This document shows, piece by piece, positions 1,332 through 38,480 of a DNA stretch of 64,000 nt. The DNA comes from Marsupella aquatica (taxonomy: Eukaryota > Plantae > Marchantiophyta): assembly GCA_973895155.1 (NCBI GenBank), contig OZ316895.1, positions 11,244,858-11,308,857 of the forward strand, read 5' to 3'. The notes under the pieces were generated by a model. The model was not told the origin of the DNA. It ran no database searches and was given only the letters and a program-made list of their open reading frames with translations. The position numbers and the translations under genes were made by a program. Numbering within the stretch: the first letter of the stretch is position 1; every line of letters begins with the position of its first letter.

Positions 1332-1446
1332 TGTGATGCCTAGACAGGAATCACTCGACCGGTTAAGTGGGTAAAGCAGGAAGGCACCCTAGGAACACCT
1401 TAGTATAGTGACAAAACAAGGAAAATATAAACAATTAGGGGCAACC

Positions 1447-4400
1447 ATGGAACCCGGGCAGAGGCCGGAGGTAAGGCTGAGGGTGAAAACCCGATTAGGG
1501 TTAGGGCGCGTTAAGCGTCGGCGGCTAGGAAGGATCAACGGGAAGAAGGACCGGCAGAGGAGAGGGGTAAGGAGCGCTTGCAGGAGATGGTGGCTCATTT
1601 GCGAGCACGAACTAGGCAGACGACTACGGGAGGCCAACTACTGTCAGCTGCTTAGGCAAGCACTCGGGGAGAGAGTAGATACCGACGATCAACCTAAGGA
1701 GGGTATGAGCAACGTCAATCAAGCGGCACATTTCTGGGGATGCCTGTTCGAACGGGCAACTGAGTACATCAAGACTTACGAGGACGAGGAGTCAGAAAGG
1801 GCAGCTCGAGAACGGCAGGAGCTCGCTTGATTGTGGGAGCTGCAGAAGACGGCTTTCTTAGGAGGCGAACTCATCAAGGACGAGTTCCTGTGGACGCCTA
1901 CTTCCAATCAACTCGACGATCTTCTGTTTTGCAAAGACAGCGTCGTCGGCATCCGAGAGGCCATCAAGAACTGCAACGACATACACTGGGAATTAAAGGG
2001 TAGCACGGAAAGGTGGACCCGGGCAACGGTGCTAGGAGAGACCTCCACGGCAGCAGAGATGAAGAGGAAGGGAGCCGTCAACGATGAAGCCACCCCGGCA
2101 AAAAGAACGAGGTCGGCGGCACCAAAGAAGCCAGCCAAGCAGCAGAGCAGGAGGCAGGGAGAAGCCGAAGAGGAGGAGGTCGATCCCATCAAGGCCATTC
2201 CAACCAGGGATGACACCTGGAAGGGCTGGGCGGCAACCCTACCGGTGGAGGTGCAACTACATTTTGCACGGGAGGAGGATGCATGCTTTACGGCCATGCA
2301 GACCAAGAAGTACCAAGGCTTCATGGCCGGATCCGGCTTGGAGGCCTTTGTAAGATTACCATGGCTGAAGCCGGAGGTACCGGAGTCAGACCTATTAGAA
2401 TTCGTGGGGTCATGGGAACCCGAGACCAATTGCACGAGGATACATGGGAAGGATTTCTATCTTACTCCCAAGGTGATTGCCGAAGTGTTTGGCTTGCCGA
2501 TGGGCAATAAGACCAAAGTTGATACCAGGAAGACCTTGCCTGACAAGGAGTTCCGGTCGTTCCCCGGGCCATCAACGAAGAATGGCTTCTTCCGGAACAC
2601 CTGCACCAACCCGCACATAGGAGAGATGATCGACTTCTTGCGGGTGACCATGCATTGTAACTTGCCGAGGGCAGAGATCGGCAAGGCACAGGTCTATCTG
2701 GCAGAAAGGCCAGACCCAAGCCGGGACTACAACGGGTACCTCCTCAACCAATTGAAGAAGATCTTAAAGGAGGAGCAGCAGGTAATCGGCATGGGGAGCG
2801 TGTCGCGGCTTGGCTATCACATGCCGCTGTTGTGCCGGTATGCCAGAGGTCAGACTTTTGCCCCGGTACTTCCCCTGCAGGTAAGGGCACCCGAGGAAGC
2901 TCCAACGCCGAGGCCGTTGGCTGAGAAGCCTCAACCACCTGTTAGTCCTACGATCGAGCAGGTGTTTAGGCCCAGGAAGGAAGACTTGCCGATGCAGCAA
3001 CCAGGCATGCAGAGTCTGCTGAAACTACTGGAGAAAGAAAAGAAATCGGCATCGGCAAAAACAACGGCAACGGCAACAATGCAGGACACTACTACAGAGG
3101 TAGGCCTACACCGGCTCACAAGAGAAAACCCCTTTGCTGGAGACAAGGAGAGAATCAGGCCGGAATCCAAGCCAGGTGTTCGAATGTACGTGGGAACCTC
3201 AAGCTCCGAATCTGAGGCAGAATTGCCTGAAGCTCCTACCAACAAAGAGGAGAGGGAGAAGCCGGACGTCCAAGAGGTAGAGGAGGCAGTGGAGGACTGC
3301 AGCCATGATAATTCCGGCTATGGGTCGGACCATCACGTTCCAGGAGTAAGGACCTGTGGCCGGTTTGTCCCCACACTGCCAAGGGTAGTGCGAGGGGACC
3401 CCAACCAGCAGAGTAGCCCTGAGTCTCCCCCACCAGATGTTGCTCCCCCGAGCTTCGACGGCATAAAACAGACGGTGCAGGAATTTCAGGAGCGAATCAA
3501 GCAGGAGGAAGAGGCCGCCCTGGCTAAGGAAAAGGATTTACCAGGAGGAGATTGGCCGGAGGACATCAGGCGGCTAGCCGAAAAAGGAAGCAAACCTCTA
3601 GCCACGATTGAAGAGATCCGCAGGACGGCTTGGGAGCAGAGGCCACAATGGGCGATGCCGATCACTTCTACTTACTCCACCTACGCTAAGAATAGAGCCA
3701 TGGAGTATGGTGAGATGTGTGGGGAACTTGCGCTCGACATCTTTGGAGAGGAGTTGGAGGTAGGACCCTTTTTCCATAGGGAGCAGTTGGAGAAGCACCA
3801 ATTAGAAGAAGCGGTGGCTTTAGAGAGAAGCAAGAAGGACGAGGTCATTCGGCGGCTTAGGAGGATGGAAGCCGAGATTGAAGATCTAAGGGCGGCCAAG
3901 AAAGCCCAAGATGAACTGCGGATTAAACGACATGAGCTGAACATCATGCAGGGGCAGTTGGACGCCGCGCAGGCTGATAATCAGAATATCAAGGATAAAC
4001 TGACTCAGACGCAGGAAGAGTTGGCCGACACGATCAAAGAAAGGGAAAAGTGGAAGCAAGAGCTGAAGAATACAGAGGAGGCCCACATAACAGCCAACAG
4101 CCGGGCCATGGCGGAGACCCAAAGAAAGGAATGGGCGTTGAAAGGGGAGCTCGAGAAAATCCGCGGAGCCCTTGAGCAGAAGGAGGTCGAGTTAGGGAAA
4201 TCCTATCAAGGGATTATGGCGCTGCAGCAGGAGCTTGCGTCCCTGACGGCCAGCTTCAAGGCCGACCTAAGGGAGAAGGACGAGATGCTCGAACAGACTT
4301 ACGCCAAGATGAACCAGATGGAGTCTGTCATCATTGCAGAGCTCGACAAGGAGCTAAGAGCAACCCAGGAGGAGAAGGCTACCTTGAAGAAGGAATTGGA

Positions 4401-5094
4401 GGAAGCCCACAGGGAGCAGGAGGAGGCCAAAAACGAGCTGGAGGGGGCACGTAAGGACCTGGATGAAACCCAAGAGGAGTTGGAGGAAATCACGAGGAAG
4501 ATGGAGAACCTACAGCGGCGGGCCGACAACCAAACAGAGCGGCTGAAGAAACAAGCCGCAGTATTTAAATGCTTAGCTGCAGCAGGTCCATCTCCTGTTG
4601 GGACAAACCAGTTACCAGGGGTGGTAATTGCCGAAGGACAAGCCGCGCCACCTGCACCAGTGCCGGAGGTAAGTGGGAAGGGGAAGGGACCAGCTGCCAA
4701 GCCACCAACGAAGAAGAAGCGGAAACCTTCAGGGTCAAGGAGTAATACGACTTCACAGGCCGTGGTGATCAAGGAGGTAGACCCAGCACCGACCCCAGAC
4801 AGGGTCACGGCTAAGGATCCAACTACCCTAGGGGAAGGGGAAGCCGAAGCCGTGGGAGTGGCTGAAGCCGAAGCCGTGGGAGTGGCTGAAGCCGAAGCCG
4901 TGGGAGTGGCTGAGGCCGAAGCCGTGGGTATTGCCGAGGCCGGTGTCGAGGCTGAAGCCGAAGGTGGACCCAGTCAGGCCGATGGAGAGTTGACTCGGTC
5001 AAGGGCAGGTAATCTGTCAGTAGGCGGGCCAACGGCAGTGGCTGAGGAGGAAGTGTTGGGGGCGTCCATTGAGGATCCACCACCGGTGTCGTGA
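1447..5094 (+). pseudogene. LTR-encoded ~1215-aa coiled-coil protein with one premature stop
   Basis: Colinear with the intact 43307-46942 ORF. TGA at 1828-1830 corresponds to CGA in the intact copy. Confidence 0.85.
4833..4945 (+). repeat. 24-bp coding tandem repeat (EAEAVGVA) x4-5
   Basis: gaagccgaagccgtgggagtggct is repeated here and absent from the other LTR copies. Confidence 0.9.
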
Positions 5095-6327
5095 CGGTGC
5101 AAGGGCGCCGTTCCTTTTAGGGAGGGCGGACGTGGAGGGAGGAGGCGTGAGTGGGCAGGGCGGGCACGGATCTCCACGTTTAGGATTAGGATCAGAACCA
5201 GGAGCGGCCCTGACACTTAGCTTAGTGGGATTGCGGTCCCACTGGTAGGAGCAACACTTGTGCTCCTGCCTTGCTGTACATAGGTAGATTCGGGCAAGTA
5301 GATTACTGTTAAGTAGATTAGGCTTACGATGCAAAGAATGGCGGATCCACTACCAGGATAAGTACCTGGGCAGCGGGGAGCTCAGGGCCTCTTCTTTAGC
5401 AAGTTTTTAGTTTGCACCAGCCGGGCTGGGATCAAGTAGTACGAGAAGCTCTCGGTTAGTCATACAGTGACCCTTGTGTATATTCATGTTTCCTCATGCC
5501 TAAGAGCTGAATAGAGTTGGCCTCACGGCTTAGTTCGCAGAACTTGTGTATGAGATGTACTGTTTGTATGGCAAGTGCATGGTATCACTCAGTCAGAATG
5601 AGTCATTTTGCTATTTGTGTGTCGCATTAACTTGTGTGAAGAGTGCCCACATCAACAGAAGGAAGGAAAGTAAGCAGGGGAGTGAGAGTTGGATGTGTCG
5701 AGCTGAGAGAGGTCTTAGCGGCTTAACCAAGCCTATTGGGGATCATTCGGGCGGCGGAATCCAAACATACCTAACAAGACGGAGGGGAAGACAGGGGAAG
5801 ACAGGGGAAGGCCTATAGTAGGCCGGCTACGTATCTCATGACCCGATGAAGGATCTGTCCAGTATATGTGTGTAAAATGTTAATAGTAGTAGTAGAATGT
5901 TAGCAGCGTCCCATGCCGCTAAGCCACGGAAACGGCCTCGCCAAGCACGAAACCTGCGGGAATCGGCTTGAGCTGGGGGGTTTCTTGGGTTTAGGGAGCC
6001 ATGGGACGCACCACAGAGCGCCATAAAATGCATGTTTACTGGAAGAAAGTTTGCAATGAGGATCCAACCAAACCTGGGCCATCTGGTGTTGATCCAAAGA
6101 AATGGGCAGCTTTGGTATCTCCACTAGTAGAAACCGGGGCAATTTAGACCATACCTTATAGGACTAAGCCCACTAAGTCCTTTTTCCATACTTGAAACGA
6201 CTCGCACCCATTGCACCGGTTTTGTTGAAGACTACAAAAGACTATTAGTGTTTTATGGTTCACTAAAAGACTATGAGAAGTAACCTTGCTACTTTGTGAA
6301 CGGTGAATAGTCTAGCACATCATGGGT

Positions 6328-8599: not shown

Positions 8600-8689
8600 G
8601 TCCTTCTCCTACTTGCAACCAAGGACCCCCTGTGCATCGTAAAGTGTGACCTCGGAGCTGAGCTGCGCACTATCTCTATTACATGCCTT
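8600..8689 (+). pseudogene. Probable N-terminal fragment of CACTA TnpD (transposase-associated Cys/His domain), separated by the MULE insertion
   Basis: CIVKCDLGAELRTISITCL joins in frame through a shared CTT codon (CCTT at 8686-8689 and 18053-18056) to HLLRHERHPWWRVW, rebuilding a C..C...HL...W motif. Confidence 0.55.
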
Positions 8690-9114
8690 GTTGTGGGCCC
8701 GACCTCCATGACAGGAAACAGGAAACAGTGATGATCATAACAGGAAAAATAGTTGAACAAAACAGGAGAATTGATATTATCATTGAGAAAAAACGACTTA
8801 ATTTTGGACCAAACCAAAGAAGTCAAATTCAACATCAACTCAAAAAGATGGGGAAAACGACAATTATCGGAAGATGTTTTTACTAGCGCTTAGTCCTAAC
8901 CAAGCGTTTGATACCGTTACAAAATATCATTAACAAAATACCCGCTCACAATCTACCAGAATGATCAGAGGATAACGGTTTCTAAGGCAAGAAAAGGTCA
9001 CATGCCTTTTCTTGAGAATGGTCACATGCCTTTTTCACCTCGAGAATGCATGCGAAAGAAATCCACACGTTCAGACCTAGACTACAAACTGAAACCAAGT
9101 AAGGAAATGAAGTC

Positions 9115-12100
9115 TAGCGCCGGGCGCTAACAAAATTGAAGTCCAAGTGACGATTGAATACAAAGAAATCTCGGTTACCCGTACAATGAAATTTACACAT
9201 CCGTAAAATTGTAAAAACAAATTAAGTGTTTTGTGCAACCCACAAAAGATTGAGCCGTGTTGAAAAGCAACCAAAGGTTGTTTACTAGCGCCGGGCGCTA
9301 ACCAAAACAAAGTTACCGTTACGAAACGACAAGTCCTACATTCCCGTTGAACGTAAACTAGAATACTAAACCTTCCTATAAACCATCAGAATTCTGCCTC
9401 CCTAGAATATAACGCAGTTCCAAAATGGTAAGAATCGGTTGGCTTGGGAGTATATTGTCCACAGGATCAAGCTTGCAGATAACTTTGTAAACCCAGTACA
9501 AGTGTTTACATGGCATGAAAGGTTTCCCTCGAGAATGTCGACGAAAGAAATCTTCACAAGAGCAACAAGGGAAAATGCAAATCTGCACCCAGTAAGTATT
9601 TGCAGTTCGTAAATGTGCATGTGTGCGTATCTGGAATCGTTTCCCGTATGAATTTCCCAATGAAACTTCCATAGTTTTGATCAAAGTCATTGTTTCTTTC
9701 GTTGCTGATTCAATCCTTTTACGATATTCCTGAGTGAGATTTGATCTGGAGCTCATCGCACGCCCGTTTCTCGTTCGAAAACGGATGTTGACTTGTGCAA
9801 GATCGATCTTTTCAGGGAAAGCGTCAATGTTGATTCTCAGTTCAAATGGAGAAGGACAACATGAAATAGCACCTCCTCTCGAGACTTCAATGCCCTGCTC
9901 GTTAAGGAAATTCAACTCCAGACTTGAAAGATGAGTGCCTTTCTGTACTGGCAAAAAGTCTGGGCAAGTAGGGAGGTTCACAATACATCGACGAGGCGGC
10001 TCTTCCAGCAATCACGAGTGGGGCAGAACCAGACAAGCTCTGGATGGTGTTCACCTCTGAATAAGCGGTAACCTTTGACGACTATTCCGACAACCCCTGC
10101 ATTTGAAGGATATCCGACCTTCTTAATTCGATTACGACACTCATCTCGATCACAACTTCCAAACAACGTCCCATTACACTGTGGTCCAGCACCGTGTCTG
10201 GAAACTCTCCGCAAATGCCATGACCCGGGTACAGCGTCCACTTCAAAAAGCGAAGTGTCTACAGGAATGAATGGAGTGGTGTTCGGAACACTTTCTGGAA
10301 CTTCAGAAGATTGAGTGACATGATGGGAAACTGGAGAGCCACTTTCAGACAAATCGATAACTGGATTCGAAGGAGGAGTTCTAAGTATCGGAATGTGCTC
10401 AAACTCGGCTGAGGTCAAATTTCTCCTCTTGCAACCTCGGGTGTTTGGCGTAGTTATGAGGACCGTGTCATGTCGATGGGAGTCTTGTGGAGAGACATTC
10501 CCGATCGCCGGACCTTTTCTTTTCACAGACTTTGTCACAAAATCCCCATTCAACGAAGAATCCCTCTCCAAATCAAATTCTGCTGCATTTGCGAGTAACA
10601 TATTAGAGGCTTCTTCGAAGAGTTTCGGGGACCCTGCCTGGTCAGCCGAACGAAAAGCCAATTCAAACACTGTAGGACCGGTACCCCGATGGAGCCCTTC
10701 ACGATATGCTGTATAGGCTGCTATTTGTGAGATTGCTCTGTTGTGATCGGTCTTACATCCTTCGAACAAACCAACTGTTTTCTTTCCCTGCCATGCTTTC
10801 ATGATTCCGTGAACAGCTTCAGAACCAGTGCAATTGGGAATCATCCCCCCTTCGAGTGCACTTTTGCTCTGAAAAAGAGTTTTGTCAAATTCAGTAAAAT
10901 ATATCGAATAAAAAAGCGGAACTTCAAAATGCGCGGATGAAAGGTATGAATGTTTTCATAATCATTGTGAACATTGAAGAAGCTATCAAGCTATTCGTTA
11001 GCGCCCGGTGCTGGCAAAAACATCAGTAAATATCACAATTACTACTATTAATTGTGGGGAATATTAATACTAGCGCCAGGCGCTAGTATACATTGACTCA
11101 CCAAACGTATGAAATTTCCCCACTGTCGCCACCTCACAACCCACCATGCGATCCATCCTTGCAACATTCTAAGTTTCCCAGGAATACAATTTCCAGATCT
11201 CCACCATGAATCAATCTCTCGTGAAACCCTGTAGGCTTCCACAAATGAAGCGGCATTCCGCAACTTGTCCCAAAGGATTCTATGTTCAACACGTTTTTCT
11301 TCAAGTACTCCTTCGATAGAGTGCCGATGCAAAGACTGATAAAAGTGGAATGCATCCGATCGCTCTCTCTCCGGGTTTGGATGGCCGTCAAAGAAGACAT
11401 TCCTAACCGCTATCCATCCCGCCTGAGCGTTATCCGCCATGAAACCATGGATTTCCACACTGTTTAAACCGTTCTCCAAAGCGACTTCGATCATCAACCT
11501 CCAAGCTTTCTCAAGCGATGCAGTGTCCTCTACTTTGAGTTCACAAGTAAATATTGTGCACAAAGCTCGATAGTTATGGTCATACACATGTGCACTAAAA
11601 GTACTCCATTCTTTGGACATCCTTTTCATCACGTCAAAGCTCACCCATGCTCCTTCTAGAGGCCCCCCTTTTTTCATCTGACGCAGTAAATCTACTCCCG
11701 ATCCATGACCTTTGATAGTCATTTTGAAAATATGCGCTCTATCACCTTTACAGCCCTGCCCAGGAAGAAGATATCTTTGGAGAAATGGAAACGTAACATT
11801 CTTCTGCATGCGAACCAGATATTCCAAATCACCTCGACCAACCTGATCTTTGCGAACGCTCTTAAATAACGCAGAAAACTTCTGAGGCGTTGAAACGAGC
11901 ATAAGTGATTTCCAGATTTCTGATTCTTCTAGCTTTGAGATGTCATCCACAGACTCACCTACGGCATCCATTAAAGATCCAGTGATCTCATTTTTCAAAA
12001 CGCACGGTGTAGAAGAAGGAGACTTCTCATGCTGTCTCCGTATTTCTTCTATTGCTATTTTCTCAGCACTTCTAGACCAGACCTTCCGACATGGATGGTT

Positions 12101-15100
12101 GTGCACTCCTATATGGATTGCAAGTCGTGACATGTGTTTTGCAGTGTCATTTTCGATCAAAACTTGCGGGTACATATAAAACATTTTTGCTGGACAAGAC
12201 TCAACACAAAATGGAACTTGAAGGCAATAGCGACAAACAATTCCTCCAGCATCGATAAACCTCCCAGGACAATGCTGACCAGAGAGCTTGGGGGTCCCAT
12301 CCCATCCATTACAGTTTCTGACTTGAGTCCTGGTGTAAAACTCACATGCTCTATTTCGGCATTCGAGAGAACCACTACAGCTTACTTTCCCAAACTCCCA
12401 CATCTTCTTCAGAATGACATTAGCAGAAGTAGGAAGGATTCTAGTCCAAAGGTAGCAGTCCTTGCATCGATCCATGTTTCGCAGACGATCCCCTTTCGAG
12501 CCAACACCTTGAACAGGTGGAAGCTCAAATATGGCATTCCCATTGTACTCTACAGGTAAGCATTCAACCTGTTTGTGAATGAATGCCTCGGACCTAACAA
12601 AGCGCGCTAACTCACTTTGTCCAGTTGACTTCAACAAGGCATCAAGTGCGCTTCTTCTATACACAACCAGAACAGGACGAGTTAGAGTGTCTCCATCATC
12701 AGACTCCTCCGACGGAAACAATACGGGGGGTACCTGGGGCGTCAACAAACTGGTACTTCCGCCCTCCTTATTGACCTCACTGCCCCTTGAGATTGGTGGA
12801 GAACCCTCAGAGCATAGGTCAATCACATCGTGAGCGACCTGGTTCCTCTCCACTTTGACATGAACAATGTCCCTTAGTTGAATGAAAATCAAGTACTCCA
12901 CACCATATTCGAGATTCCAAACAACGTCCTCCGCTTCAGTATCAAAATGAGCGGGCCCATCGTTCAAAGTTCTGATACTCAAAATATGTTTTCTCGTCAC
13001 CCCAAATCTTCCACACAGGTAATTATCACTAACACGTTTCTTGGTTTCGGAAATCGACACAGGGATCGTCACAACGTCACCTGTATTCGGACACGTTATT
13101 CCAATAATGCGAGACATTCTAACTCCCCAAAGATAACCGACTACATAAAATAATGATACATGGTAAGATCAATCTAGATTGTATGGTTGAGGGTTTCTTC
13201 TAAATCCAAGTCTCAAAAGGAAAGAGCCGTCTAGCGGTTATAGGATCCGTTGGGTACGGATTTTCTTACCGTTCACGAAACGACAAAACCATCAATTATG
13301 CGGAAAGTTACTGTTAAATTAATGGTTTTGACGTTGTAACCAACGGGGTAATATAGTAGCGCCAGGCGCTAGCATTGTCCACATCTGAAATATCCCCAAA
13401 AATGAACAACAAAAGAAAAGATCATCGACCATTTTGGTCACTGACACAGGTTAAAATCCTACGACAGGTTTCGGGTTTGCTTGGAAATATATTGGGTTTC
13501 CTTGGAAATACCCCTTATTTATGTCAGACGACAATATTACCCTTTGCTAATATTAAAATCGATCCATTTGAACACGATTACAAGCTATCATAATAATAGC
13601 GCCAGGCGCTATCATAAAAGTCATAAAATTGTCAAGATGTACTCGCAGATTATTTATAGAAACTTACACATTTTGGGTCCAAACATATACCATTTTCATG
13701 TGTCTCGTTACTAGCGCTGGGCGCTATTATTGAAATCTATACATTTGAGCCATATTTGACACTAAAAGAAAATAGCGCCTGGGACTCTCGTAAACTTTAT
13801 CAAAACAGAATCCGTTTATTACAAAATCTTTCACGCTTTAGTCCATTCATTCGCTTGATTTTTTAGTACAATGTTACTAGCGCCAGGCGCTATTATTAAA
13901 ATTCATCATTTTAAGATATATTTTAGTCTAGCATAATAATAGCGCCAGGCGCTAATATTAGATCGAAGTAGAATACTCAGATAAACGGTCTTTTTAAACG
14001 GTAACTTTGACCGTTTATCGTTACAATTTAGAATGAATTCTTGGATAAATATATTCACGAGTACCTATAACTAGTTAAAATGTGACAAGTGTCAACCTTT
14101 AGTAGGTCTGCTTTTGGATGCTCGTGCTTTTCGATGAGTACTTGTGATACATGTCCGTCTGCCACAGGGTATATCAGATAAGATCTTTTCGCAATAGTGT
14201 CTTCCTTGATCGTTAGAACGACCTCTGTGCATGTTTAGGATCGTTGTCAATCATTCGTCCATATCGGTACAGCACCACAAGAAACGTTGCATCACGCAAG
14301 AAGCACGTTGCGGTGCGGGTTCCCCGTGTGTATGCATCTTAAACAAACATGGAGAATCATTCTCCTGGCCATTCTGAAACATCTGAGTCCTCATTCTCCG
14401 GATCAGTTTATACTCGGAGAGTCACTCGTTCGTCTGCGTCGAACTCTTTGCGAAACATTAGTCAGGCGATTCCAAAGCCAAAACGAGGCATCATGGAGTC
14501 TTACGGAGATTTTGCGATGGAGGACGGGGGCGAGGGAGTCCTCTCCATGGATGCTGTGATCGAGAAATACGCAATGTCGTTTGGAGTCGATTTCAGAGGG
14601 GAGAAGAAAGAGCCGCCGCGTATCCCTCTTTGTCGGCTTGTTCACATGGAAATCGTTCGGACTTTGCAGAAAAATAGTGCATCTATCGATAAGCTCAAGG
14701 ATTCGTTTCGGAGCTCTGGGTACAACTCTTCAATTGGGATGCGGTTTTACGTCCAGCCCATGGATTCAGAAGGAGTCGTTCAATTCTGCACGCCTGAAAT
14801 TTGGGAGACCTGGGATGTTGTTTGGGTTGCCCAGAACAACTTGTTTGAAGCATAATGTGCTACTGATCCAGATTTCCACATTCTGAAGGATAAGATGTTC
14901 TATGTTTTTGATGGGAATCATCGACTCTACACGTGGACCCAAGTAACAAATGAGAATCCAGACAATATCAAGTACCATCCGCGTGTTCAATGCACTGTTT
15001 TTAAGGGAGATCGAGGTTCTCTAGTTGAGCTTGAAGCGGCTATGCACATGGTGAACCAGTAAGTATTCCTCAAGTTGCATAAACGCTATTGAATTTGGTC

Positions 15101-17613
15101 GATTGCGCTTGATTTTTGCAAGGTTAGTTAGCGCCAGGTGCTAATATTTTCCATTATATCTTACAGGTTAGGGCAAGCTGTGGTGGAACCATCATGGATT
15201 CTCGATGCCGATAGAATCAATAGGATTTTAACTCATGACTTGGAGGCCTACAAGCCGATCATCGACCCCGGAAGCTTCAAGCGATTTCAAACTGTTCGTG
15301 CCAAAACAAGGAAGGGGTCTTGGTATACCAAGCAGATGCCATTGGAAGCATTGGTTTACATCTTGTGTGAAAACAAGATTAAGTCATATTCACTTCAATT
15401 TAAGCTTGACTTGGCTGCTGTGGCAAGTCAAGGTCGCTCGTGGTCATCTAAAGAGACTGGTAAGCGGTATGCTGCCATGATGAAGGAGGCAACGAAGGAG
15501 TGGAGCATAAAGACATCCAAGATTACCCCCCTGATAAGCCCAGAGTTTGGTGATTTTCTGTCAACTTGTGCAGAAATGTACATTCTTACGGAGAGGAACA
15601 AACGAGAAAAGAAGCCGGACTCTGTAGTATGTACAATGGACCGCGCGCGTCTATTCACTGCTGTCTCCTACTTGGATCCACAACTGCGCTGTACTCTTCT
15701 TATCGCTCACTGTACACCAGAGCTCAGAAAACAATTTTACCATCCCCCGAGTGTGAATGATGACCCTGTTAAACAGTGGTGTCATACATGGCACATGTGG
15801 AGTTTGGTGGAAGGAATTGCAATTGCAATGTTACAGACATCTCTTTCGCAAGTCCAGTCGATCCTACCTGCTGATCGTCTAACGCTAGGAGGAGTGGAGA
15901 CGTTTGAAGCATTGGTCTTGAACATCACCAATGATTTCAAGACATACGGTGAAACAGTGAAGGCGAAGTTTTTTAGCACAATTTGGCAGTCCAAGTACGG
16001 AGACAAGGAAGACTATACCATTCGCAACCAGAAGCGAGCCAAGAGATATCTGTATCGCTTCTACATGGCCATGGAGACCAGTTCTCCAGAGTATTTTTGG
16101 GCTTACCCTCCTGCATTCCAGAAATGGTCCGTTCTAGAGGGGGATGCTTCTAGCGAAGTTTACTCAATGTACACTGCCGAAGGGGACGTTCCACCACGTG
16201 AAATTTCATTGTGGGAGATAACCCACTGTCCATGGTATCTTGACACAGATAAGTGGGACACCCGTTTCGATGAAGCTGAAAAGGATGCATTTCTGAAATT
16301 ATCAAAGTCTTTAGTGCCTCGGAAAGTTCTCTCTGAAATGAAACAAGGTTTATCGGAAGATGTAGATGCCTCGGCGAGCGAGCTGCAGAAACATTGCGAA
16401 ACAGAAGTTTTGCATGTAGACAGGAGTCGAAAACCCAGGGCAAAAGCAAAAGTAGACACTGGAGTAACCAGCCCATCAACGAGATCTGGGAAGAAACGTG
16501 AGATTCTTCTATTTTTCATTGGCATTCAGTATTTTCTCTTCACTAGTTTGGATATTTAGGTGACTTTTTGTTAAGCGCCACATATGTTGGTGTGCCTTTA
16601 TTGCTTGATTTTTGTGCATTTTGGTTAGCGCCCGGCGCTTGTGTTATTTTCCAGTGGCATTCTGTATTTTTTTGACGAGCGCTGCAGATCAAGTTGTCTA
16701 TTTGGTTAGCACCCGGGAGTGAAATTCGGTTAGCGCCCGGCGCTGGTGTTATGTGGACCGTAATCTTGGAAACTTTTGTATCTTTTTCTAGGTGGACGGA
16801 AATCGGATGGAGAAGAAACACAAGATGCAAAGACGACTGTCACTCCTGGAGTCTCTGAAGCTGATACGGGGGAACAAGATGTCCCTGATGAACAGACTCC
16901 TCCCAACACGGAGAAGATGGTGCGACCTGCAAATGCCACCAGCACAAAGAAGAAGAAAAAGAAATCTTCAGATCATGGATTTTCCTCTCGGGATTCGGTC
17001 GCTTCTACTGGTGTTCAACGAGATGTTGGACAGTTCAAGTCTAAGACTTCTAGGCATGTTTTTGTTGAGTCCAGTGTAATGGACTTCTTTGAGAGTGTGT
17101 TCACGAAAGAGCAGAAACCAGCTTGGGTGTCAAATGTGGAGAAGTGGGTGAAAGACCTAGTCTTGCTTGGTTTAAGGGAGAAAGGAGTCATAAGAGGAGG
17201 AAAGATAAGATCATTTGGAGTTGATGCTGGATTCGTTTACCTCCCAACTGGACTGCGTCCATCCCTTTTAGAGAAGAAGTCTCCAAAATGGAATTCCCCA
17301 GATCACAGAATTGTTGGTTCATTCTTTCGCGCAATGGACCCCTTTCTAGCAGATGATGGTATATTGGCCATTTTGCATACTGGCGAGTATGATCAGATCT
17401 CGCAGGTCATTGCCGCGAGCCAGGAGTCTCAAAAGTTTCAGTGTGTGAAAACCCTGAACGTGGTTATGGGAGTTCCAATGTACATGGCCCGAAGTGATTG
17501 CCAGGTAAATTCTCTCACTCTTCGTGCTGTCCTTTGTTAGCGCCGAGCGCTAGCTAAAAATGTTTTCATTACCCTTCAGTTAAGGGGATATTCTTTGTTA
17601 GCGCCTGGCGCTA
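9115..17613. repeat. Dispersed 15-bp palindrome TAGCGCCNGGCGCTA (about 15 copies)
   Basis: Copies at 9115, 9286, 10999, 11071, 13357, 13597, 13712, 13878, 13940, 15129, 16626, 16731, 17538 and 17599, plus degenerate ones. All are in introns or intergenic DNA. Confidence 0.92.
9376..13117 (-). pseudogene. MULE-type DDE transposase with N-terminal GCM/WRKY-like zinc finger and C-terminal SWIM finger
   Basis: C.GSL.C.N..C...C..C...C.A...RL..H.G.H.HP, then VSFD...E....W...GFMADNA.A.W.AVR.VF...FH..QS (MULE core) and CCSCEDF...PCKHLYW (SWIM). Intron about 10869-11101. One frameshift near 10000. Confidence 0.75.
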
Positions 17614-18052
17614 TCCAAAATTCATTGTTATGCCGTGATTTGAATGATTTTCTGGTTGGATCGTCGGCATCTTAACAATGGACTTTGTTGGGATTTCACA
17701 GGTTTTCACATTGAGATTGGATCTGTTCAGTCGTGTTTTGTCAAAGGTTAAGGTTCCAAAGGACCCCAAGTTTCGACCCCTCTCTGCGACTGAAGATCCT
17801 TCTATCACTAACCTTATTGGTCTCCCGAGTGTGAAGAAGAATCCAACTCCTTCAGCAGCGTTTGCTGGCAATGGACGCTTGTCCGTTGGGTTCATGCAAT
17901 CTGTGTTAGAGTTAATCACTCGTCCGAGTGACATTGTCATGGACTGGACTGTGGGTTCGGGAAGTACATTTGTTGCTGGTGACTATTGTGGACGTTTTAT
18001 TCTTGGTATAGAAAACCGAAAAGAGTTTGTTGAGATTGCGGAAAAGATGGAT
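14349..18052 (+). pseudogene. Multi-exon gene: ParB/Sulfiredoxin-like N-terminal domain, helical region, C-terminal beta-class N4C/N6A DNA methyltransferase-like domain
   Basis: RIPLCRL..VR.LQ..I..LK..F...GY and VFDGNHRL (ParB). VDAGFVYLPTG, FLADDGILAILH and ELITRPSDIVMDWTVGSGSTFVAGDYCGRFILGIE (MTase motif IV-like ... motif I order). Introns 15059-15166, 16498-16791, 17505-17701. TAA at 14853. Confidence 0.72.
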
Positions 18053-21000
18053 CCTTCACCTGCTGCGGCATGAAAGGCACCCTTGGTGGAGGGTTTGGAA
18101 TGTACCAGCAGAAGAAGACTCCTCTGATGAAGAGTGGAGAGCTGACTTTGTGGATTCTAATACAGCTAGGCATAGAGACTACGTAGAGCAGGACATAGAC
18201 TGTGCAGAGGATGGTCCTAGGGTCCAACATGAGAACGTGGATGACCAAGATGGAGATGCAGAGGCAGTCACTGAGGACGGTGGGATGGATGTCCCAAGAA
18301 TGGTTCAAGAGATTTTTGAAGACCTTGATGCTTTTTACGACACAGTGGAATCAGAAGAGGACAATGAACCGCAGCCACACATTGGAGACGGCCAAGCTGA
18401 ACCTGATTTTGACATTGGGGAAGGTGCAGCAGAGAGGGAATGGGTGTTTGGGGGCCCAAAACACATCAAAGAAGCTTGCATTCCTATTTACGAGGGGTCA
18501 AACTGCTCCAAACTGGGTTTTGTCGTGTTGTTGTTGAACATCTGTGGCAATCACAATGTTCCCAATATATTTGTGACAGAGTTGTTGACCTTCCTGCGCC
18601 GAAATGTGTTACCAGATGGTAATTCAATTCCAAAAAATATGTACGAGGCTAGGAAATTGATGTCTAACCTTGGGCTGAACTATGTGTCTATTGATGCATG
18701 CCCTGATGGGTGTGTTCTCTTTCGCAAAGAGCATGCAGATAAATTGACATGCCCTCATTGTGGTAAGCACAAGTACAAGAATGTAGGGAAATGTACACAC
18801 CCTGCCAAGGTTCTTCGTCATTTTCCTCTCATTCCTAGACTACAACGTCTGTTTAGATGCCCTGCCATTTCCAAGCTGATGACATGGACTCCTGATAACA
18901 AGAGTAGTGATGGCCTGCAGCGTCATATTGGAGATTCCAACCATTGGAAATTTGTTGATGAGAGGTGGCCACAGTTTGCTGCAGAGAAGCGGAACTTTTG
19001 ATTTGGTCTATCACTGGATGGAGTAAACCCATTTGGAGACAAAAACAACTGTTATTCATGTTGGCTGGTTATGCTGCTAAATTACAACCTTTCCCCATGG
19101 ATGACTACAAAGTGGTTTTTTGTCACTATGGTGCTGTTAATCCCTGGACCAGCTTCTGTGACCGAGCAATTCATAGATATCATGTTGGCTCCAGCAGTGG
19201 AAGAGTGGAAGACTTTGTGGATAGAAGGGGTGTTAACCCATGATGTTCTGAAGGGGCTTCTTCGACCCAGCCCCTTTAGACTGCATGCAATTTGTTTGCT
19301 GGATATAGCAGATTACCCATGCCATGGCATCATATCTGGACGAGTGACAAAGGGCTATGTGGGGTGCACACCATGTGGGAAAAATGTGACAAGTGAGTGG
19401 TCGCATGCCCTGCACAGTATGAAATTTCAGGGGCATAGAAGGTATCTGCCTGTTGATCATCCTTACAGGCACACACGGTCTCAAATTGCACACTTCAACA
19501 ACAATTGTGGCCCACCACAGAGGGTCACCAGAGAGCAAATCCTGAGGTGGGCAACCAGGAAGGCTGATTGGGACAAGAGAAGTGCCACTGATCGAGAACT
19601 TGAGGATCCAGTGGTGAAACACGGTGTGAAAAGACAGACCTTGATGGACTTGGAGTTGGAGTACTGGAGGGTAATGTACTTAGCCTCCAGCCCCTGTACG
19701 ATTGCAATTTTAGATTGGAGCAATGGTGGATTGATGTTGGTTACAATCCTCCTCTGTGGTTAATTAGTGTTTATGTTGTTGAATTCTTTGCTTTGTGGAG
19801 TGCAGGAATTCGAGCCCAGCAAACACAATGTGGACGTCATGCACATTGAGAAAAATATTTGTGAGAGCTTGCTGAAGTTCTTGTCGGGTGAGAAAGATAC
19901 AGGAGCAGTTCGAGCTGATATGCAACAGAAGGGGATTCCCCCTCACCTTTGGTTGAAGCCCCATGCAAGCAATCCCAATGTACTTCTCAAGTTCCAAGCT
20001 CCCTATGTGTGCACACAGGATGAATGGAAGACATTCTTGTATAGATTGAGCTGTCTGAAAGTGCCCTCTGGCTATGCTGGTGCCTTCAAGAAGCATATTA
20101 CAAAGAATAAACTTGGCAGTATGAAAACACATGACTACCATGTGTTGATGCAGCACATTCTGCCCCTATGCCTCAGAGGTCTCATACAAAAACCAGTCCG
20201 TAATGTCATTCTTCGACTGTGCAATGTATTTTGCCGTATATGTGTGAAAGTGTGGGATCCCCAAGGATTGGAGCAGTTGAAGCAGGATGCTGCTTATGTC
20301 CTCTGTGACTTGGAGATATACTTCCCCCCTGCTTTCTTTGATGTTATGACTCATCTCCTAATCCATGTGGTAGAAGAGCTAGGGCAGTATGGGCCAGTCA
20401 GTACCAGATGGATGTACCCTATGGAGCGATACATGAAGTTGTTGAAAGGTCATGTGAGAACATACTACAGGCCAGAGGCTTCCATGGCATTGGGGTACAT
20501 TAAGGATGAGACGTTGGGATTCCTAACAGAGTACATGGCTGGGTCTGGTGAAGCTATGACAAGAGTTTGGAAATCTGGTGAAGATGATGGAGTGAGTGGC
20601 GAGGTTGTTGAAGGTGTGGGACGTGCTGTTCAGCTGCCTGTTGCGATTCGAGACAAGGCTCATTCATATGTGCTGGCAAACACAGAGCCTATGCAACCAT
20701 GGTGGAGGTGAGTGATTGAATTGACTTGCCTTTGTTGTGATGCTTCTTGTCTGTTCCAAGGGTGATCTTAGGTTGTCATGTGTTGTTTAGACCTAACTAT
20801 GCCTGTACCTCATATTGCAGGGAATATGATATGCAAAAAGCTGCACACTCTGGGCAGCAGGATCCCTTCCCACAGTTTGAGCAGTGGATTCAAGTGACAA
20901 TTCGAGAGCATAGTAGACATCACCCAGATATGGAGAAGGATTTGTATCTTCTATCTGTGCCACCACGATTGTCTATTCTGACCTACAAACGGATGAGAGC

Positions 21001-21444
21001 TTATGGAAATCATTATCGAGTGAGGGATGAGCAGGGTGACCATTGTGTATCATATGATTGTGGTTTGATTTCTGTGTTTGAGCAGAGAACCTCTGAAGAA
21101 GAGAGGGGGTGGATGAAGATGGGTTACGTGGGGGAGTTGACCGACATTTGGGTGTTGAATTATGGTAACACAAGTGTCCCAGTGATATTGATGAAGGGAT
21201 CATGGGTGAAATCAGAGTGGCAGAGACCAAGGGCCACCATGAAGCGTGATCATGATGGGTTCTTGTTGGCCAATTTTAGGTCCAGAGTACCAGAATGGTC
21301 TGAGCCTTTTGTTTCCCTAGCCAAGTTGAACAGGCTTTCTTTGCAGATGTGGAGGAGTCCCATGGCTGGAGGGTGGTATGCCATAGCCAAGCACGGAACA
21401 GGCGGATGGATGGAAGTAAAGTAGAGTTCAGTTTGGATGACCAT
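18053..21444 (+). pseudogene. CACTA TnpD transposase (Transposase_21, DUF4218, DUF4216), disrupted; 3' tail at 31381-31520
   Basis: IDACPDGCVLFR, LRHFPLIPRLQRLF, HNVDVMHIEKNICESLL, MKTHDYHVLMQ, FPPAFFDVMTHL..H, RWMYPMERYM, YKRMRAYGNHYRV. Stop at 18999-19001 plus frameshifts. Introns about 19671-19805 and 20708-20820. Confidence 0.92.
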
Positions 21445-23300
21445 TGTGATGCCTAGACAGGAATCACTCGGCCGGTTAAGTGGGTAAAGCAGGAAGGCAC
21501 CCTAGGAACACCTTAGTATAGGGACAAAACAAGGAAAATATAAACAATTAGGGGCAACCATGGAACCCGGGCCGAGGCCGGAGGTAAGGCTGAGGGTGAA
21601 AACCCGATTAGGGTTAGGGCGCGTTAAGCGTCGGCGGCTAGGAAGGATCAACGGGAAGAAGGACCCAGGAGGAGAGGACTACCTTGAAACAAGAACGGGA
21701 GGAAGCCCAGAAGGAACTAGAGGAGGCACGCAAGGACCTGGATGAGACCCAGGAGGAGTTGGAGGAAATCACGAGAAAGATGGAGAACCTCCAGTGGCGG
21801 GCCGACAACCAAACGGAGCGGCTGAAGAAACAAGCCGCAGTATTTAGGTGCTTGTCTTCATCAGGCCCAACTCCAATTGGGGCAACCAAGTTACCAGGAG
21901 TGGTACTGGCCGAAGAAAAAGCCGCGCCAACTGCACCAGTGCCGGAGGTAAGTGGGAAGGGGAAGGGACCAGCTGCCGAACCAGAAAAGAAGAAAAAGCG
22001 GAAACCTTCAGGGTCAAGGAGTAATCCGACTCCACAAGCCGTGGTGACCAAAGAGGTAGAACCAGCACCATCCTCCGACATGAATACGGCAATAGATCCC
22101 GCTATGATCACAGGTAGGGATGGTGCGGCCCAAGCCGAACTACTCAGTAAGGAGGCCAGTATTCCAGATCCGCCTCTTGAGCAGGCCGGGGAGACCGTAG
22201 CCGAGGCTGAGGCCGTAACCGATTCTCGAGCCGATGCCGACGCCGATGGTGGACCCAGTCAGGCCGATGGAGAGTTGACTCAGTCAAGGGCAGGTAATCT
22301 GTCAGGGAATGAGCCTACGGCAGTGGCTGAGGAGGAAGCATTGGGGGCGTCCATTAAGGATCCACCACCGGTGTCGTGACGGTGCAAGGGCGCCATTCCT
22401 TTTAGGGAGGGCGGACGTGGAGGGAGGAGGCGTGAGTGGGCAGGGCGGGCGCGGATCTCCACGTTTAGGATTAGGATCAGAACCAGGAGCGGCCCTGACA
22501 CTTAGCTTAGTGGGATTGCGGTCCCACTGGTAGGAGCAACACTTGTGCTCCTGCCTTGCTGTACATAGGTAGATTCGGGCAAGTAGATTACTGTTAAGTA
22601 GATTAGGCTTACGATGCAAAGAACGGCGGATCCACTACCAGGATAAGTACCTGGGCAGCGGGGAGCTCAGGGCCTCTTCTTTAGCAAGTTTTTAGTTTGC
22701 ACCAGCCGGGCTGGGATCAAGTAGTACGAGAAGCTCTCGGTTAGTCATACAGTGACCCTTGTGTATATTCATGTTTCCTCATGCCTAAGAGCTGAATAGA
22801 GTTGGCCTCACGGCTTAGTTCGCAGAACTTGTGTATGAGATGTACTATTTGTATGGCAAGTGCATGGTATGACTCAGTCAGAATGAGTCATTTTGCTATT
22901 TGTGTGTCGCATTAACTTGTGTGAAGAGTGCCCACATCAACAGAAGGAAGGAAAGTAAGCAGGGGAGTGAGAGTTGGATGTGTCGAGCTAAGAGAGGTCT
23001 TAGCGGCTTAACCAAGCCTATTGGGGATCATTCCGGCGGCGGAATCCAAACATACCTAACAAGACGGAGGGGAAGACAGGGGAAGACAGGGGAAGGCCTA
23101 TATTAGGCCGGCTACGTATCTCATGACCCGATGAAGGATCTGTCCAGTATATGTGTGTAAAATGTTAATAGTAGTAGTAGAAGGTTAGCAGCGTCCCATG
23201 CCGCTAAGCCGCGGAAATGGCCTCGCCAAGCACGAAACCTGCGGGAATCGGCTTGAGCTGGGGGGTTTCTTGGGTTTAGGGAGCCATGGGACGCACCACA
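21445..23300 (+). repeat. 5' LTR (internally deleted)
   Basis: Near-identical to 29525-31380 (about 6 substitutions seen by eye). Confidence 0.95.
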
Positions 23301-23323: not shown

Positions 23324-23369
23324 CATTTCTTAAGCCGTGAGATATGAAGTTAGAACGGAAGCGTAGGTA

Positions 23370-26363: not shown

Positions 26364-29300
26364 ATACCAAGGGATCGGCATACAAGCCGATTACAAGGGC
26401 AGAACAAATTGAGGCCCTATTAGAAGCCGAGAGAGCACAATGGCCTAACTCGCAGGAGCAAGAGGTGGATGAGATGGACAGACACGATCCAGAGCCAAGG
26501 CAGGAAGGGGAGCCGGCCACTAATTCAAGACTGAATAGACCGGTAAGGGGACAATCTATGGACACCAAGGAAGGGACCGACTCGGCTAGTCCAGCCGAGA
26601 TCCCAGTTTATGGAGGTATGAGATTAGAGAGACTGGAAGCCGAACTGGACCCGAATTTGAAGAAGCAGATTAATATGATCCAAGCACGGCAATATCGGAA
26701 GCTCGACTTAGGAGAGGGAAGAGAACTGAACTTAGGGAGAAACCTAGCACCTGAGCTCGAGAAAGAGATCAGTGACTTATTGATTGAATTTCAGGATGTG
26801 TTTGCATGGAGTCACCAAGATCTAAAGGGAGTAGATCCAACACTAGGGGAACATCGAATTGATCTCATGTTAGGAGCCAAATCATTTCGACAACCAATTC
26901 GAAGGATGAACCCGAAGTATTCCCTGCTGGTCAAAACAAAAATCGACAAACTAGTGGAAGCTGGATTCATCACTCCAGTCCTGCATTCAGACTGGGTGTC
27001 TCCAATTGTGATAGTTCCCAAGAAAGCTGGACCCGATGGTAAACCCAAGATCCGGGTTTGTCAGGATTACAGGAAGCTGAATGAAGCAACATTAAAAGAC
27101 CATTTTCCTTTACCGTTTACTGATATGGTACTAGACATGGTAGCCAGTCATGAACTATATTCATTCATGGATGGATACTCTGGTTATAACCAAATCAGGA
27201 TTCGGTAGGAAGACCAAATCAAGACGGCCTTCATCACGGAATGGGGGATCTATGTCTTCAATCGTATGCCGTTTGGACTCTGCAACGCACCAGCTATGTT
27301 CCAACGATTAATGGTGAACATTTTTCATGATTACTTGAGAAAGTTCATGGAAATCTTCATTGATGACTTTGCAGTATTCGGGAAGGCATCGAAACATGCT
27401 AAATACCTCAGGAAAACCTTCATGAGATGTAGAGAGGTGGGTCTCAAGTTACACCCAGATAAATGTTTTTTTGCAGTAACCGAGGGGGTGCTACTAGGTC
27501 ACAAGGTATCAAGGAAGGGCATTGAGATTGACAAAGGTAAGCTAGCAGTATGGCTAGATATCATGCAACCTAAGAACATAAAGGATGTAAGATCCTTCTT
27601 GGGATGCATTGGTTACTATCGCCGGTTCATCAAGGATTTTGCCAAGCTAGCTTTACCATTAACCAATATGCTCAAGGCAGGAGCAGACTTCGAACCCACA
27701 CCCGAACGAGTCACAGCGGTGGTAGAATTGAAGCAGATGTTAGTAGAGGCCCCAGTCATGATAGCACCGGACTGGAACAAAGATTTTCATGTTTTTGTAG
27801 ATGTCTCGGGCTTCTGTATTGGCTCAGTACTAAGTCAGTTGGATGAGAAAGGAAGGGACCATCCCATATACTTCGCAAGCCGTCAGCTTGCCGATGCCGA
27901 ACGGAACTACTCTACCACGGAAAGAGAAGCATTAGGAGTCATTTATTCTTGTAAAAAGTTTAGGCATTATTTACTAGGGTACAAGGTAATCTTTCATACT
28001 GATCATGAAAGTTTGAAGTACCTAGTCAATAAGCCGGACCTTACAGGCAGAGTAGCAAGATGGATTTTGCTATTACAGGAGTTTGACTATGAGCTGAGGA
28101 TCAAGCCGGGAAAGTTACATGCCAATGCCGACTTCTTTTCAAGGATCACAGGTAAACCTGCCACGGATTGCATCGATGATCGATTCCCCGACGAGGAGCT
28201 ATTCGTTGTGGAAATAGCTGGTACATGGTACCCTGAGATTTTACAATTTCTCAGCACTTCCAGATTACAGCCAGGATTAAGCCGAGAGCAAGCCGCAGTC
28301 TTTGTGCGGAAGGTCAGACAGTATCAGTGCATTAAAGGCATACTGCACAAGCATGGAATCAACGGCACGATTCAAAGATGTTTGGAAAAGAGAGAGGTAA
28401 AACGAGTCCTACGGGCCATGCATGGAGAGGAGGCCGGAGGACATTTTGCCCCAGTAACCACGTCTAAAAAGATATTAAATGCCGGTTACTGGTGGCCCAC
28501 CTTGCACAAAGATGTCTATCAGTTTATCAAACAATGCGATCCTTGTCAACGAGCGGGAGGACCAAGGGCGTCCACCAGGCATCCACTGCACCCTATTCTA
28601 CCTCTGGCACCATTCGAGAAGTGGGGTATTGATTACATTGGACCTCTGAAACCACTGACCCACCCTCGACGGAACAAGTACATAATCCTGGCTACGGATT
28701 ATGCAACTAAATGGGTAGAGGCCAGACCAACAACGAAGGATGATGCAATTACTACGGCTAGATTCATGTATGAGCAGATCTTCACCAGGTATGGAGCACC
28801 CCTAGAATTAGTTAGTGATAGAGGAACCCATTTTTTGAATGATATAATTAGTCGTTTAAATGAGCAGTATTTAGTTAAACATAGGCCTACTACTCCCTAC
28901 CATCCAAAGGCAAACGGGTTGACAGAACGAGCAAACGGAATTATAGGAAAGATATTGAACAAGACAGTAGCTCAGAACAAACTCGATTGGGATGATAAAT
29001 TGTTTGCTGCTGTTTTTGCTTACAATCTTGCCTATAAATCCACTACCGGTCATACACCCTTCTTCTTAACCTTTGGACAAGAAGCCCTGGTACCCATGCA
29101 ACTTGAGATACCGACATTTCAAGTTACAATTGAGGAAAGAGCCTCAGCGGAGGAGAGCCTAAAGGAGCAAGAATATAGGTTAGAAGCTTTAGAGGAAGCG
29201 AGAATGATTTCAGCCGAGAGAGTAGAATATAGACAGAATATCATGAAGCAGCAGTATGATAAAAGGTTAAAAGTAGTTAGTATTCATACCGGTGATCTTG

Positions 29301-29510
29301 TGCTACTTTATGACAGTAGGTATAGTAGGTTTCCAAGAAAGCTTTACACTCGCTGGTTAGGACCCTTTAGAGTAACCATGATGTTCCCCAATGGCTCCGT
29401 ACAATTGGCCAACATTACGGGAGAGGTATATCCAGTTCGCATCCATTATGACCGCCTCAAGAAATACTATATGGACGAAGATGAAGTTGTTCGCGAGGAC
29501 GCTTCACAAT

Positions 29511-29524
29511 TAAGTGGGGAGCTA
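29511..29524 (+). promoter_or_regulatory. Polypurine tract
   Basis: TAAGTGGGGAGCTA immediately before the 3' LTR. Confidence 0.7.
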
Positions 29525-37769: not shown

Positions 37770-38480
37770 TAAATGACTGGCTAGAATGACTGATGTAATG
37801 GTCATTATCCACTAGTATCTTTGTGACCAATATGACTCAACTCTGGTCATTAAAGACATAGACTAAATGATTCAAAGAATGACATATACAATGACCGCTC
37901 TCATGGTCATTATAAACAAGTCCACTATGACTCATTTTATGTCATTCAAGATATGTCATTAATGACTAATGTGTATCTTTATGTGTCTCCTCCTAATTGA
38001 ACCACGTGTCTTAATATGACTTGTTTATATCGTAGTCATTTTGGACACGTCCAAAATGACCCAAATATATTGCCAAATGGTGAATCCTCTTTGAACCATG
38101 TGTCATTATTTGATTTGTTATATAATGTACGTCATTTTGGACAAGTCCAAAATGACCAATGTTATTTGCTTTTTTATGGCCACGTGTCATTGTGTGATTG
38201 GGTACGACGACCGTCAACGGTCAACGGCAATTGACCGTCGATGGTGATTTGTGTTGTCATTTTGGACCGTTCAGCATTTATGACCATATCATAAAAACCG
38301 TCATTTAGGATAGTATGAAATGACCACATGTTTTTAGCGTCATTTGTCCAAAAGGACCGTGACCAAAATGTCCGTTGTGACGCGTCTGGAAAGACAAGAA
38401 CGATTGCGTCATTGTTTTGTTAAAAAGACCTGATTAATAGTCATTGTTTCCGTCATAAAATACATTGTTTTCTACTAGTG
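37770..38480 (+). mobile_element. Right arm of the outer CACTA: AATGAC/GTCATT subterminal repeats and TIR
   Basis: Ends TTTTCTACTAGTG at 38480, with dense direct and inverted AATGAC repeats. The left end lies outside the window. Confidence 0.88.

Follow-up and report, generated by a model that had tools for sequence, protein, structure and literature searches.

A Mutator-like transposon of the liverwort Marsupella aquatica carries a gene for a predicted ParB-like protein with a degenerate methylase domain, alongside candidate family-specific palindromic sites

Why would a plant DNA transposon carry a gene that is part ParB and part bacterial-type DNA methyltransferase (MTase)? The question is raised by contig OZ316895.1 of M. 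aquatica (assembly GCA_973895155.1), of which we analyzed 64,000 nucleotides (positions 11,244,858 to 11,308,857 of the forward strand; hereafter the window). An original prediction, made from the sequence alone, placed in this window a Mutator-like element (MULE) with a ParB–MTase gene beside its transposase and proposed that the element may mark itself with N4-methylcytosine (4mC) or N6-methyladenine (6mA), or evade host silencing. We recovered the gene pair and found two features that the earlier observation had missed, a degenerate catalytic motif in the methylase part and palindromes confined to noncoding DNA. The best reading, by analogy, would be a VANC-like self-recognition protein with a ParB/helix-turn-helix (HTH) module on candidate parS-like sites and a pseudo-methylase. 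Under this explanation, which may well be right and may equally well be wrong, the passenger protein (ParB/Srx domain, helical region, and methylase-like domain lacking the catalytic motif) binds the noncoding palindromes of its own element and shields it from silencing.

Copy 1 is a truncated MULE-like element in which a MULE-like transposase lies head-to-head with a four-exon accessory gene; the gene structures bear out the predicted arrangement on opposite strands. The four exons have GT–AG ends and join into one frame of ~1035 codons, in which codon 171 is the one internal stop. The predicted exon coordinates thus hold for the splice sites and the frame, but the last exon is cut at 18047 and the frame is interrupted. 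The exons are as follows:

14349-15058, plus strand: accessory exon 1 of copy 1, ParB/Srx-fold domain with VR, DGNHR, and M-x-x-x-N conserved; in-frame stop at 14853-14855
15167-16497, plus strand: accessory exon 2, all-helical, the first part with a weak HTH-like match and the rest without a clear fold match
16792-17504, plus strand: accessory exon 3, low-complexity basic linker followed by the N-terminal half of the MTase domain, with the degenerate motif IV FVYLPTG (Y at 17238-17240)
17702-18047, plus strand: accessory exon 4, S-adenosylmethionine (SAM)-binding motif I DIVMDWTVGSGST; cut at 18047

The predicted ParB/Srx signature VFDGNHR is present in exon 1, and the fold was tested on an AlphaFold model of a Riccia homolog, P0155, built from 105 sequences. 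The model is confident over most of residues 10-310, with predicted local distance difference test (pLDDT) values mostly >85 for residues 10-179. Its best structure matches (VIA, 48,161 chains) were KorB (Z 7.6, root-mean-square deviation [rmsd] 2.5 Å, 93 residues aligned) and PadC (Z 7.0, rmsd 3.1, 97 aligned), and further down, among rows of helical bundles, came pNOB8 ParB-N (Z 6.1), sulfiredoxin (Srx, 5.9), and SerK (5.3). In a second comparison, the N-terminal plus DNA-binding domains of ParB and Noc aligned over 157-199 residues of the model with Z 8.1-8.8 and rmsd 6-7. The nine best Foldseek rows were all ParB, Noc, or Srx, but with E 0.8 or worse. The individual Z scores are moderate, but matches to several members of the same superfamily converge on one region, and the modeled N terminus is on these grounds a ParB/Srx fold. 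The domain was recognized from structure alone and not by sequence profiles: searches against PDB and Pfam returned no ParB family, and none of 98 members had a Pfam ParB match. Residues G126, N127, H128, and R129 are kept in 95, 100, 94, and 87%, respectively, of 103-104 aligned homologs, the N of DGNHR being invariant in 104 sequences. The motif is GNHR and not GERR, which we take to be the motif of the partition ParB CTPases, and a clamp is therefore a guess.

Beyond the ParB domain, residues 181-306 of the P0155 model gave a weak HTH match to DeoR (Z 4.7, rmsd 2.0, 49 residues), and the helical region 335-520, which was not folded separately, gave no clear fold match. A word-index search returned no long relatives of exon 2, but HMMER did find relatives, and the exon aligns with the Riccia protein P0153 at 26% identity over 434 amino acids (E 3e-32).

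The C terminus proved to be a beta-class amino-MTase in its fold, as predicted. Exon 4 matches PF01555 above the cutoff (35 bits vs. 26.7, E 1.8e-8) and also matches M1.HpyAVI/DpnA-type and CcrM chains and phage DNA methylases. The order of motifs is that of the beta class, with motif IV before a recognizable SAM-binding motif I. The register of motif IV follows from a profile alignment to three phage MTases, which spans 221 columns with a probability of 96.8 and sets the phage CVDMVFCDLPYG (DLPY) against GVDAGFVYLPTG (YLPT) of the window. The window thus has YLPT in place of DPPY and retains neither the catalytic (D/N/S)-P-P-(Y/F/W) pattern nor the SPPY of the eukaryotic N4C-MTases N4CMT and MpDN4MT1. 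Motif IV could be located by its pattern in 19 proteins, reading D[LM]P[ST] in 18 of 18 from Riccia and DVPF in one from Adiantum; two further Riccia models read DLSS and DMSS, another from Adiantum reads DFPI, and the remaining models are fragments that lack this part of the protein. The HPTQKP-type motif is degenerate as well.

Four sequencing runs from two studies provided read evidence, in which depth is not a copy number. No variant reached ≥30% at the Y codon (17238-17240) in the four runs, and the motif loss is therefore common to the subfamily. At the same time, of the 36 coding substitutions listed for 17100-18047, 23 were synonymous, against an expected fraction of 0.23-0.28 (p ~1e-5; 5 noncoding or CACTA rows excluded, with rows that do not represent independent lineages). 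A domain that is conserved but lacks its catalytic residues points, as far as its sequence can tell, to a pseudo-enzyme. N4CMT lost its activity when the first and last residues of SPPY were replaced (PMC8885841), and CcrM uses the D and first P to hold its target amine (PMC10406627). Both N4CMT-essential residues, S and Y, are replaced in YLPT, and the proposal of a self-marking 4mC/6mA writer found no support; with DPPY changed to YLPT in the window and to D[LM]P[ST] in all 18 Riccia motifs found, an active writer is unlikely.

What the protein might recognize is suggested by the noncoding DNA of the two copies of the element in the window:

9115-17613, unstranded: 14 palindromes TAGCGCC-N-GGCGCTA (≤2 mismatches) of copy 1, at 9115, 9286, 10999, 11071, 13357, 13597, 13712, 13878, 13940, 15129, 16626, 16731, 17538, and 17599
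13118-14348, unstranded: divergent spacer of copy 1, AT-rich, ~1.2 kb, with five of the palindromes (13357, 13597, 13712, 13878, and 13940)
43176-52556, unstranded: palindromes TAGCGA-NN-TCGCTA (≤2 mismatches) of copy 2, at 43176, 48066, 48171, 48515, 50605, and 52543
41149-41722: third palindrome array, eight GACGCTT-N4-AAGCGTC, inside the copy-2 span, in its spacer

All 14 copy-1 palindromes fall in introns, the spacer, or the 3' region of an element that is 71% coding, and all 6 copy-2 palindromes are noncoding. An unbiased scan of the window ranked TAGCGC-N3-GCGCTA first. The copy-1 palindrome appeared in none of 200 Markov simulations, with one degenerate site elsewhere in the window, and the simulation mean for the copy-2 palindrome was 0.045, although the motif was chosen post hoc and such statistics are consequently optimistic. 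The two related families thus differ in their palindrome, TAGCGCC-N-GGCGCTA versus TAGCGA-NN-TCGCTA, and each site is made of CG and CHG contexts. A family-specific motif concentrated in noncoding DNA (14 of 14 and 6 of 6 sites) is what characterizes VANC targets, and by analogy the palindromes would be arranged like VANC targets and shaped like ParB targets.

Under the explanation we favor, the protein would act as a dimer whose HTH-like helices, downstream of the ParB domain, recognize the palindrome in the way that ParB recognizes parS. A nucleotide would be bound at the conserved GNHR/N site, and this might allow clamping and spreading; the methylase-like domain would act as a noncatalytic reader of DNA or of a base. 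Occupying CG/CHG-rich sites in the divergent promoter and introns would shield them from host methylation and sustain transposase expression, in the manner of VANC in VANDAL elements; the protein could work in trans on broken copies. The earlier idea of a reader that evades silencing hence gains circumstantial support, by analogy, from the palindromes.

The original prediction had the same gene pair recurring, strongly diverged, at 38481-52986. Copy 2 does lie there, in reverse orientation:

38481-40638, minus strand: accessory gene of copy 2, exons 1-2 only (40638-39938 and 39824-38481), with four stops; a CACTA end cuts it at 38480
48679-52224, plus strand: transposase of copy 2, start approximate, with the same intron position as copy 1 and frameshifts
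52930-52986, minus strand: terminus of copy 2, homologous to 8695-8760

The recurrence holds for the transposase (42-56% identity to copy 1) and for accessory exons 1-2 (37-42%), whose first intron has the same codon and phase in both copies, but tblastn found no methylase exon for copy 2 within the window. The claim of homologous termini stands for one of them, 8695-8760 versus 52986-52930, and not for a second pair. The 13-mer core of the shared terminus (≤1 mismatch) occurs at just two places in the window, and the whole-terminus alignment, at 62.5, barely exceeds the best background score of 60.0 among 1734 tiles. Each copy lacks one end, the right end of copy 1 being lost and copy 2 being cut by the CACTA end, and both are pseudogenes.

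Relatives of the accessory protein argue against a chance capture of the gene. With copy-2 exon 1 as query, 242 proteins were found at E ≤0.001 among 1.84 billion representatives (50%-identity clustering). We looked up 20 proteins (19 exon-1 matches and one transposase homolog), and 10 of these were gene models of Riccia sorocarpa (7) or Adiantum (3). Full-length relatives occur in Riccia and partial ones in Adiantum; the Riccia protein R1sor_027256 (P0153, 1207 amino acids) has the whole architecture. A search with the Riccia methylase part gave 26 models, all from R. sorocarpa, on 8 different large contigs; the species has eight chromosomes (PMC11735767). A tree was computed from 53 ParB domains, namely the matches with the motif and sufficient length from the first 75 plus the named ones. 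In this tree, one supported group takes in the two copies of the window together with 7 of 8 Riccia rows, and the copies are separated by 1.17 substitutions per site. By these relatives, the window would come from a plant, probably a nonseed plant. The full architecture in Riccia and the same gene and orientation in two copies uphold the predicted conserved accessory gene. Among the fern models, P0089 (Adiantum) and P0072 have the ParB domain with a short C-terminal stretch resembling methylase motif I; P0089 additionally contains, in fusion, an NIF/FCP1 phosphatase domain (PF03031, E 2.4e-12), which may reflect either another kind of accessory architecture or two genes merged in the model.

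The vehicle of the gene is less easily classified by sequence profiles, and its ends and surroundings are as follows:

8695-8765, plus strand: left terminus of copy 1, beginning GGG, with AACAGG three times (8717, 8739, and 8761); common with the copy-2 terminus, partner end lost
9376-13117, minus strand: MULE-like transposase of copy 1, exon 1 13117-11102, intron 11101-10869, exon 2 10868-9376; frameshift near 9995
18053-21424, plus strand: CACTA Transposase_21 region of the host element, outside the MULE-like element; terminal inverted repeats at 6122 and 35810, target site duplication (TSD) CTC

The N-terminal part of the transposase is Cys/His-rich, followed by conserved WVSFD, FMADN, and DAFH and then GSEAVH; its candidate DDE and DxxH residues, which we presume to be the catalytic set, are conserved in homologs. 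A C-terminal CxC-x15-CxH SWIM-like finger is visible in both copies, and Pfam SWIM matched copy 2 weakly (E 0.14) and copy 1 not at all. Pfam found no MULE domain, and searches of NCBIfam and PDB sequences were also empty; the transposase therefore represents a divergent lineage. Its assignment nevertheless stands: the core of P0156, a ~50%-identical homolog, resembles MULE and ZSWIM1-3 RNaseH-like clusters with an Atlas score of 0.92, MULE making up 12-26% of cluster members and 10 of the 10 best family matches agreeing, as expected of a MULE-type RNaseH-like transposase with the features given in PMC6446971. The single-sequence fold was uninformative (pLDDT 32.5). A search of the viral fold library returned nothing at E ≤0.001. 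An alignment search found no loci of transposase relatives in metagenome or viral contigs and none on plasmids. Locus L001 (from P0001) was dropped as a relative, being an unrelated prokaryote-type gene. Near 9995, where the window transposase shifts frame, the high-depth contigs of the sequencing runs have an extra base.

A CACTA element spanning 6122 to 35810 encloses copy 1, itself a truncated pseudogene. Past 18047, the element continues differently in 4 of 4 sequencing runs, and CACTA sequence with its own upstream starts at 18053; a deletion joined the host CACTA to the truncated accessory gene. On the left, the loose end at 8694 was considered as an empty site and rejected: the 22 nt next to the terminus (8673-8694) are doubled in tandem in other copies of the flank, and the end is a 22-nt tandem variant of that flank.

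Several observations weigh against a self-recognition protein that shields its element. The HTH match is weak, Z 4.7 lying in the range below 8 that is common by chance. The first accessory intron of copy 2 lacks a palindrome, and the third array, possibly a nested nonautonomous element with its own motif, lies within the copy-2 span. The DVPF of one Adiantum model retains the aromatic residue. Of the five transposase relatives found, none is named as Riccia or Adiantum, and any linkage of the gene to a MULE there is putative. High-depth contigs carry a 1-nt deletion at 15526 (three runs covering the site), and a stop at 17774 makes up 35-100% of the depth in the runs: the abundant subfamily has a broken accessory gene, which may be helped in trans. 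Because the left flank has a depth similar to that of the element, the subfamily may also owe its spread to the host element, in which it would be a fixed passenger. The broken genes and the similar depth of flank and element could also be taken to mean that the gene is neutral, captured cargo in decay, like that of a Pack-MULE, with the palindromes as by-products of local duplication, and the pseudogene state of both window copies agrees with that. We consider such neutrality very improbable, as two copies that differ by 1.17 substitutions per site agree in the gene, its first intron, and its orientation, the MTase region has an excess of synonymous changes, and the full architecture recurs in Riccia, with 242 ParB-domain relatives at 50%-identity clustering.

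That synonymous excess, together with the beta-class motif order and the recognizable SAM motif, would also suit an active amino-MTase, guided by ParB, that deposits 4mC or 6mA on the element; the D and second P persist in Riccia, DVPF is found in one Adiantum model, and the algal relatives are predicted writers (PMC12477816). This we find improbable, if less so than neutral cargo: the window subfamily has replaced both residues whose joint replacement abolished N4CMT activity (PMC8885841), the aromatic is absent from 18 of 18 Riccia motifs, and the HPTQKP-type motif is degenerate too. R. sorocarpa, moreover, has dozens of such genes, yet shows 4,071 6mA versus 404,506 5-methylcytosine calls under a strict filter (PMC11735767), a weak indication from an assay without 4mC. 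Somewhat more credible, though still unlikely, is that the palindromes are sites of the transposase or a host factor and that the ParB/pseudo-methylase protein helps otherwise, in target-site choice, chromatin tethering, or transpososome assembly. A preprint reporting sequence-specific self-activation by the AtMu1 transposase (10.64898/2026.08.24.746577) speaks for this and against the accessory protein as the binder, and since transposase and accessory gene diverge together between the copies, the change of palindrome fits either protein. The transposase, however, would be expected to use the separate conserved AACAGG repeat of the termini, which both copies have; the palindromes, by contrast, occur in introns and are not the same in the two copies. 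Binding to palindromes is known for the ParB family (10.1101/2025.02.11.637652).

A bolder version of self-recognition by the accessory protein can be drawn, which we regard as conceivable but doubtful. A phage-derived ParB–methylase would have been co-opted by Mutator-like transposons of land plants; its nucleotide-gated clamp would load on the family palindromes and spread, and its dead methylase would block or reverse host cytosine methylation, with protein and palindrome coevolving in each family. Liverworts and ferns would then possess a second VANC-type anti-silencing system of independent construction. Self-recognition can be tested directly by reciprocal binding, since the window contains two related families that differ in their candidate site, and, if true, it would provide a compact sequence-specific epigenome-targeting module and a general way for transposons to escape silencing without harm to the host.

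The remainder of the window is also rich in transposons. The CACTA elements are nested: the one at 6122-35810, with a complete pair of ends and TSD CTC, encloses copy 1 and a Ty3-type retrotransposon, and a second CACTA end lies at 38469-38480, its partner not being in the window. The Ty3-type element (23367-29536) has 1.86-kb long terminal repeats (LTRs) at 21445-23300 and 29525-31380, which are internally shortened forms of a 4.7-kb unit standing alone twice, at 1332-6015 and 43192-47854 (94% alike). The 4.7-kb unit holds a coiled-coil open reading frame of 1087-1229 codons, and the two look like solo LTRs that have a long gene within them. Plavaka-type transposase fragments (52872-56448; PF18759, E 5.5e-13) follow immediately after the copy-2 terminus, and a degenerate palindrome of the copy-1 type lies within that region, at 55465; in red algae, Plavaka elements carry ParB/methylase genes (10.1101/2025.02.11.637652). 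A Ty1/copia-type element at 57146-63592 has 405-bp LTRs that are 97% identical and several stops.

How does the element compare with known systems? Transposon-borne ParB–methylase genes have already been published for brown, red, and green algae. A literature search, in which subscription journals were thinly covered, found no land-plant element of this kind. The nearest counterpart by description is Sola1-1_Ec32 of Ectocarpus, in which a 1104-amino-acid ParB plus N4/N6-MTase gene lies opposite the transposase and is proposed to bind and modify its own element (PMC12477816). The gene of M. aquatica shares this plan, a single ~1100-amino-acid fusion on the strand opposite the transposase. The Ectocarpus element is a brown-algal Sola-1 with a 4-bp TSD and a predicted writer, whereas ours is a land-plant MULE-like element with a degenerate motif IV; no palindromes are mentioned in the material from PMC12477816, against the 14 found here. 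Red-algal Plavaka and Chondrus Mutator elements carry a PF01555 plus SET gene (PAG2) and a ParB plus 2-oxoglutarate (2OG) oxygenase gene (PAG3), with inverted-repeat arrays beside the ParB gene (10.1101/2025.02.11.637652). They share with our element the PF01555 methylase and ParB-like domains on DNA transposons, and differ in having two genes and tandem arrays, in contrast to one fused gene, for which no SET or 2OG match was found, and palindromes dispersed over introns and spacer. The brown- and red-algal papers put forward the binding and modification of own elements as proposals, VANDAL being called the only proven case (10.1101/2025.02.11.637652).

VANDAL is likewise a MULE with an accessory gene, and the noncoding, family-specific motifs of VANC are short and amassed in introns, intergenic, and terminal noncoding DNA (PMC5735166). 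VANC itself differs, having DUF1985/DUF287, for which no Pfam match was found in any exon or full-length homolog here, and nonpalindromic 8-9-nt motifs in tandem repeats in place of a ParB/MTase fusion and 14-15-nt palindromes; anti-silencing by our element is a candidate function, by analogy with VANC. By their features, the nearest nonplant clusters are phage ParB–methylase fusions (Atlas 0.83, a lead). The phage ParB-N plus N6_N4_Mtase fusions and ParB-Tls loci have the same domain order (PMC4738411), with 400-530 amino acids and an intact PF01555, whereas the plant protein adds ~450 amino acids of helices and linker, has introns, and has lost motif IV. The rotifer N4CMT and Marchantia MpDN4MT1 share the beta-class amino-MTase fold in a eukaryote (PMC8885841; PMC10406627; 10.1101/2021.02.12.428880), and identity to bacterial or Marchantia/rotifer MTases is near 20%. 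Those are domesticated, active SPPY enzymes without ParB, the Marchantia enzymes carrying TSPPY (10.1101/2021.02.12.428880), in contrast to a transposon-borne protein with neither SPPY nor DPPY. The concept itself is thus already published, and what is new here is its occurrence in land plants, the MULE vehicle, the catalytically degenerate methylase, and the family-specific palindromes: the ParB plus methylase arrangement of transposons extends from algae to land plants, with the catalytic motif of the methylase lost there.

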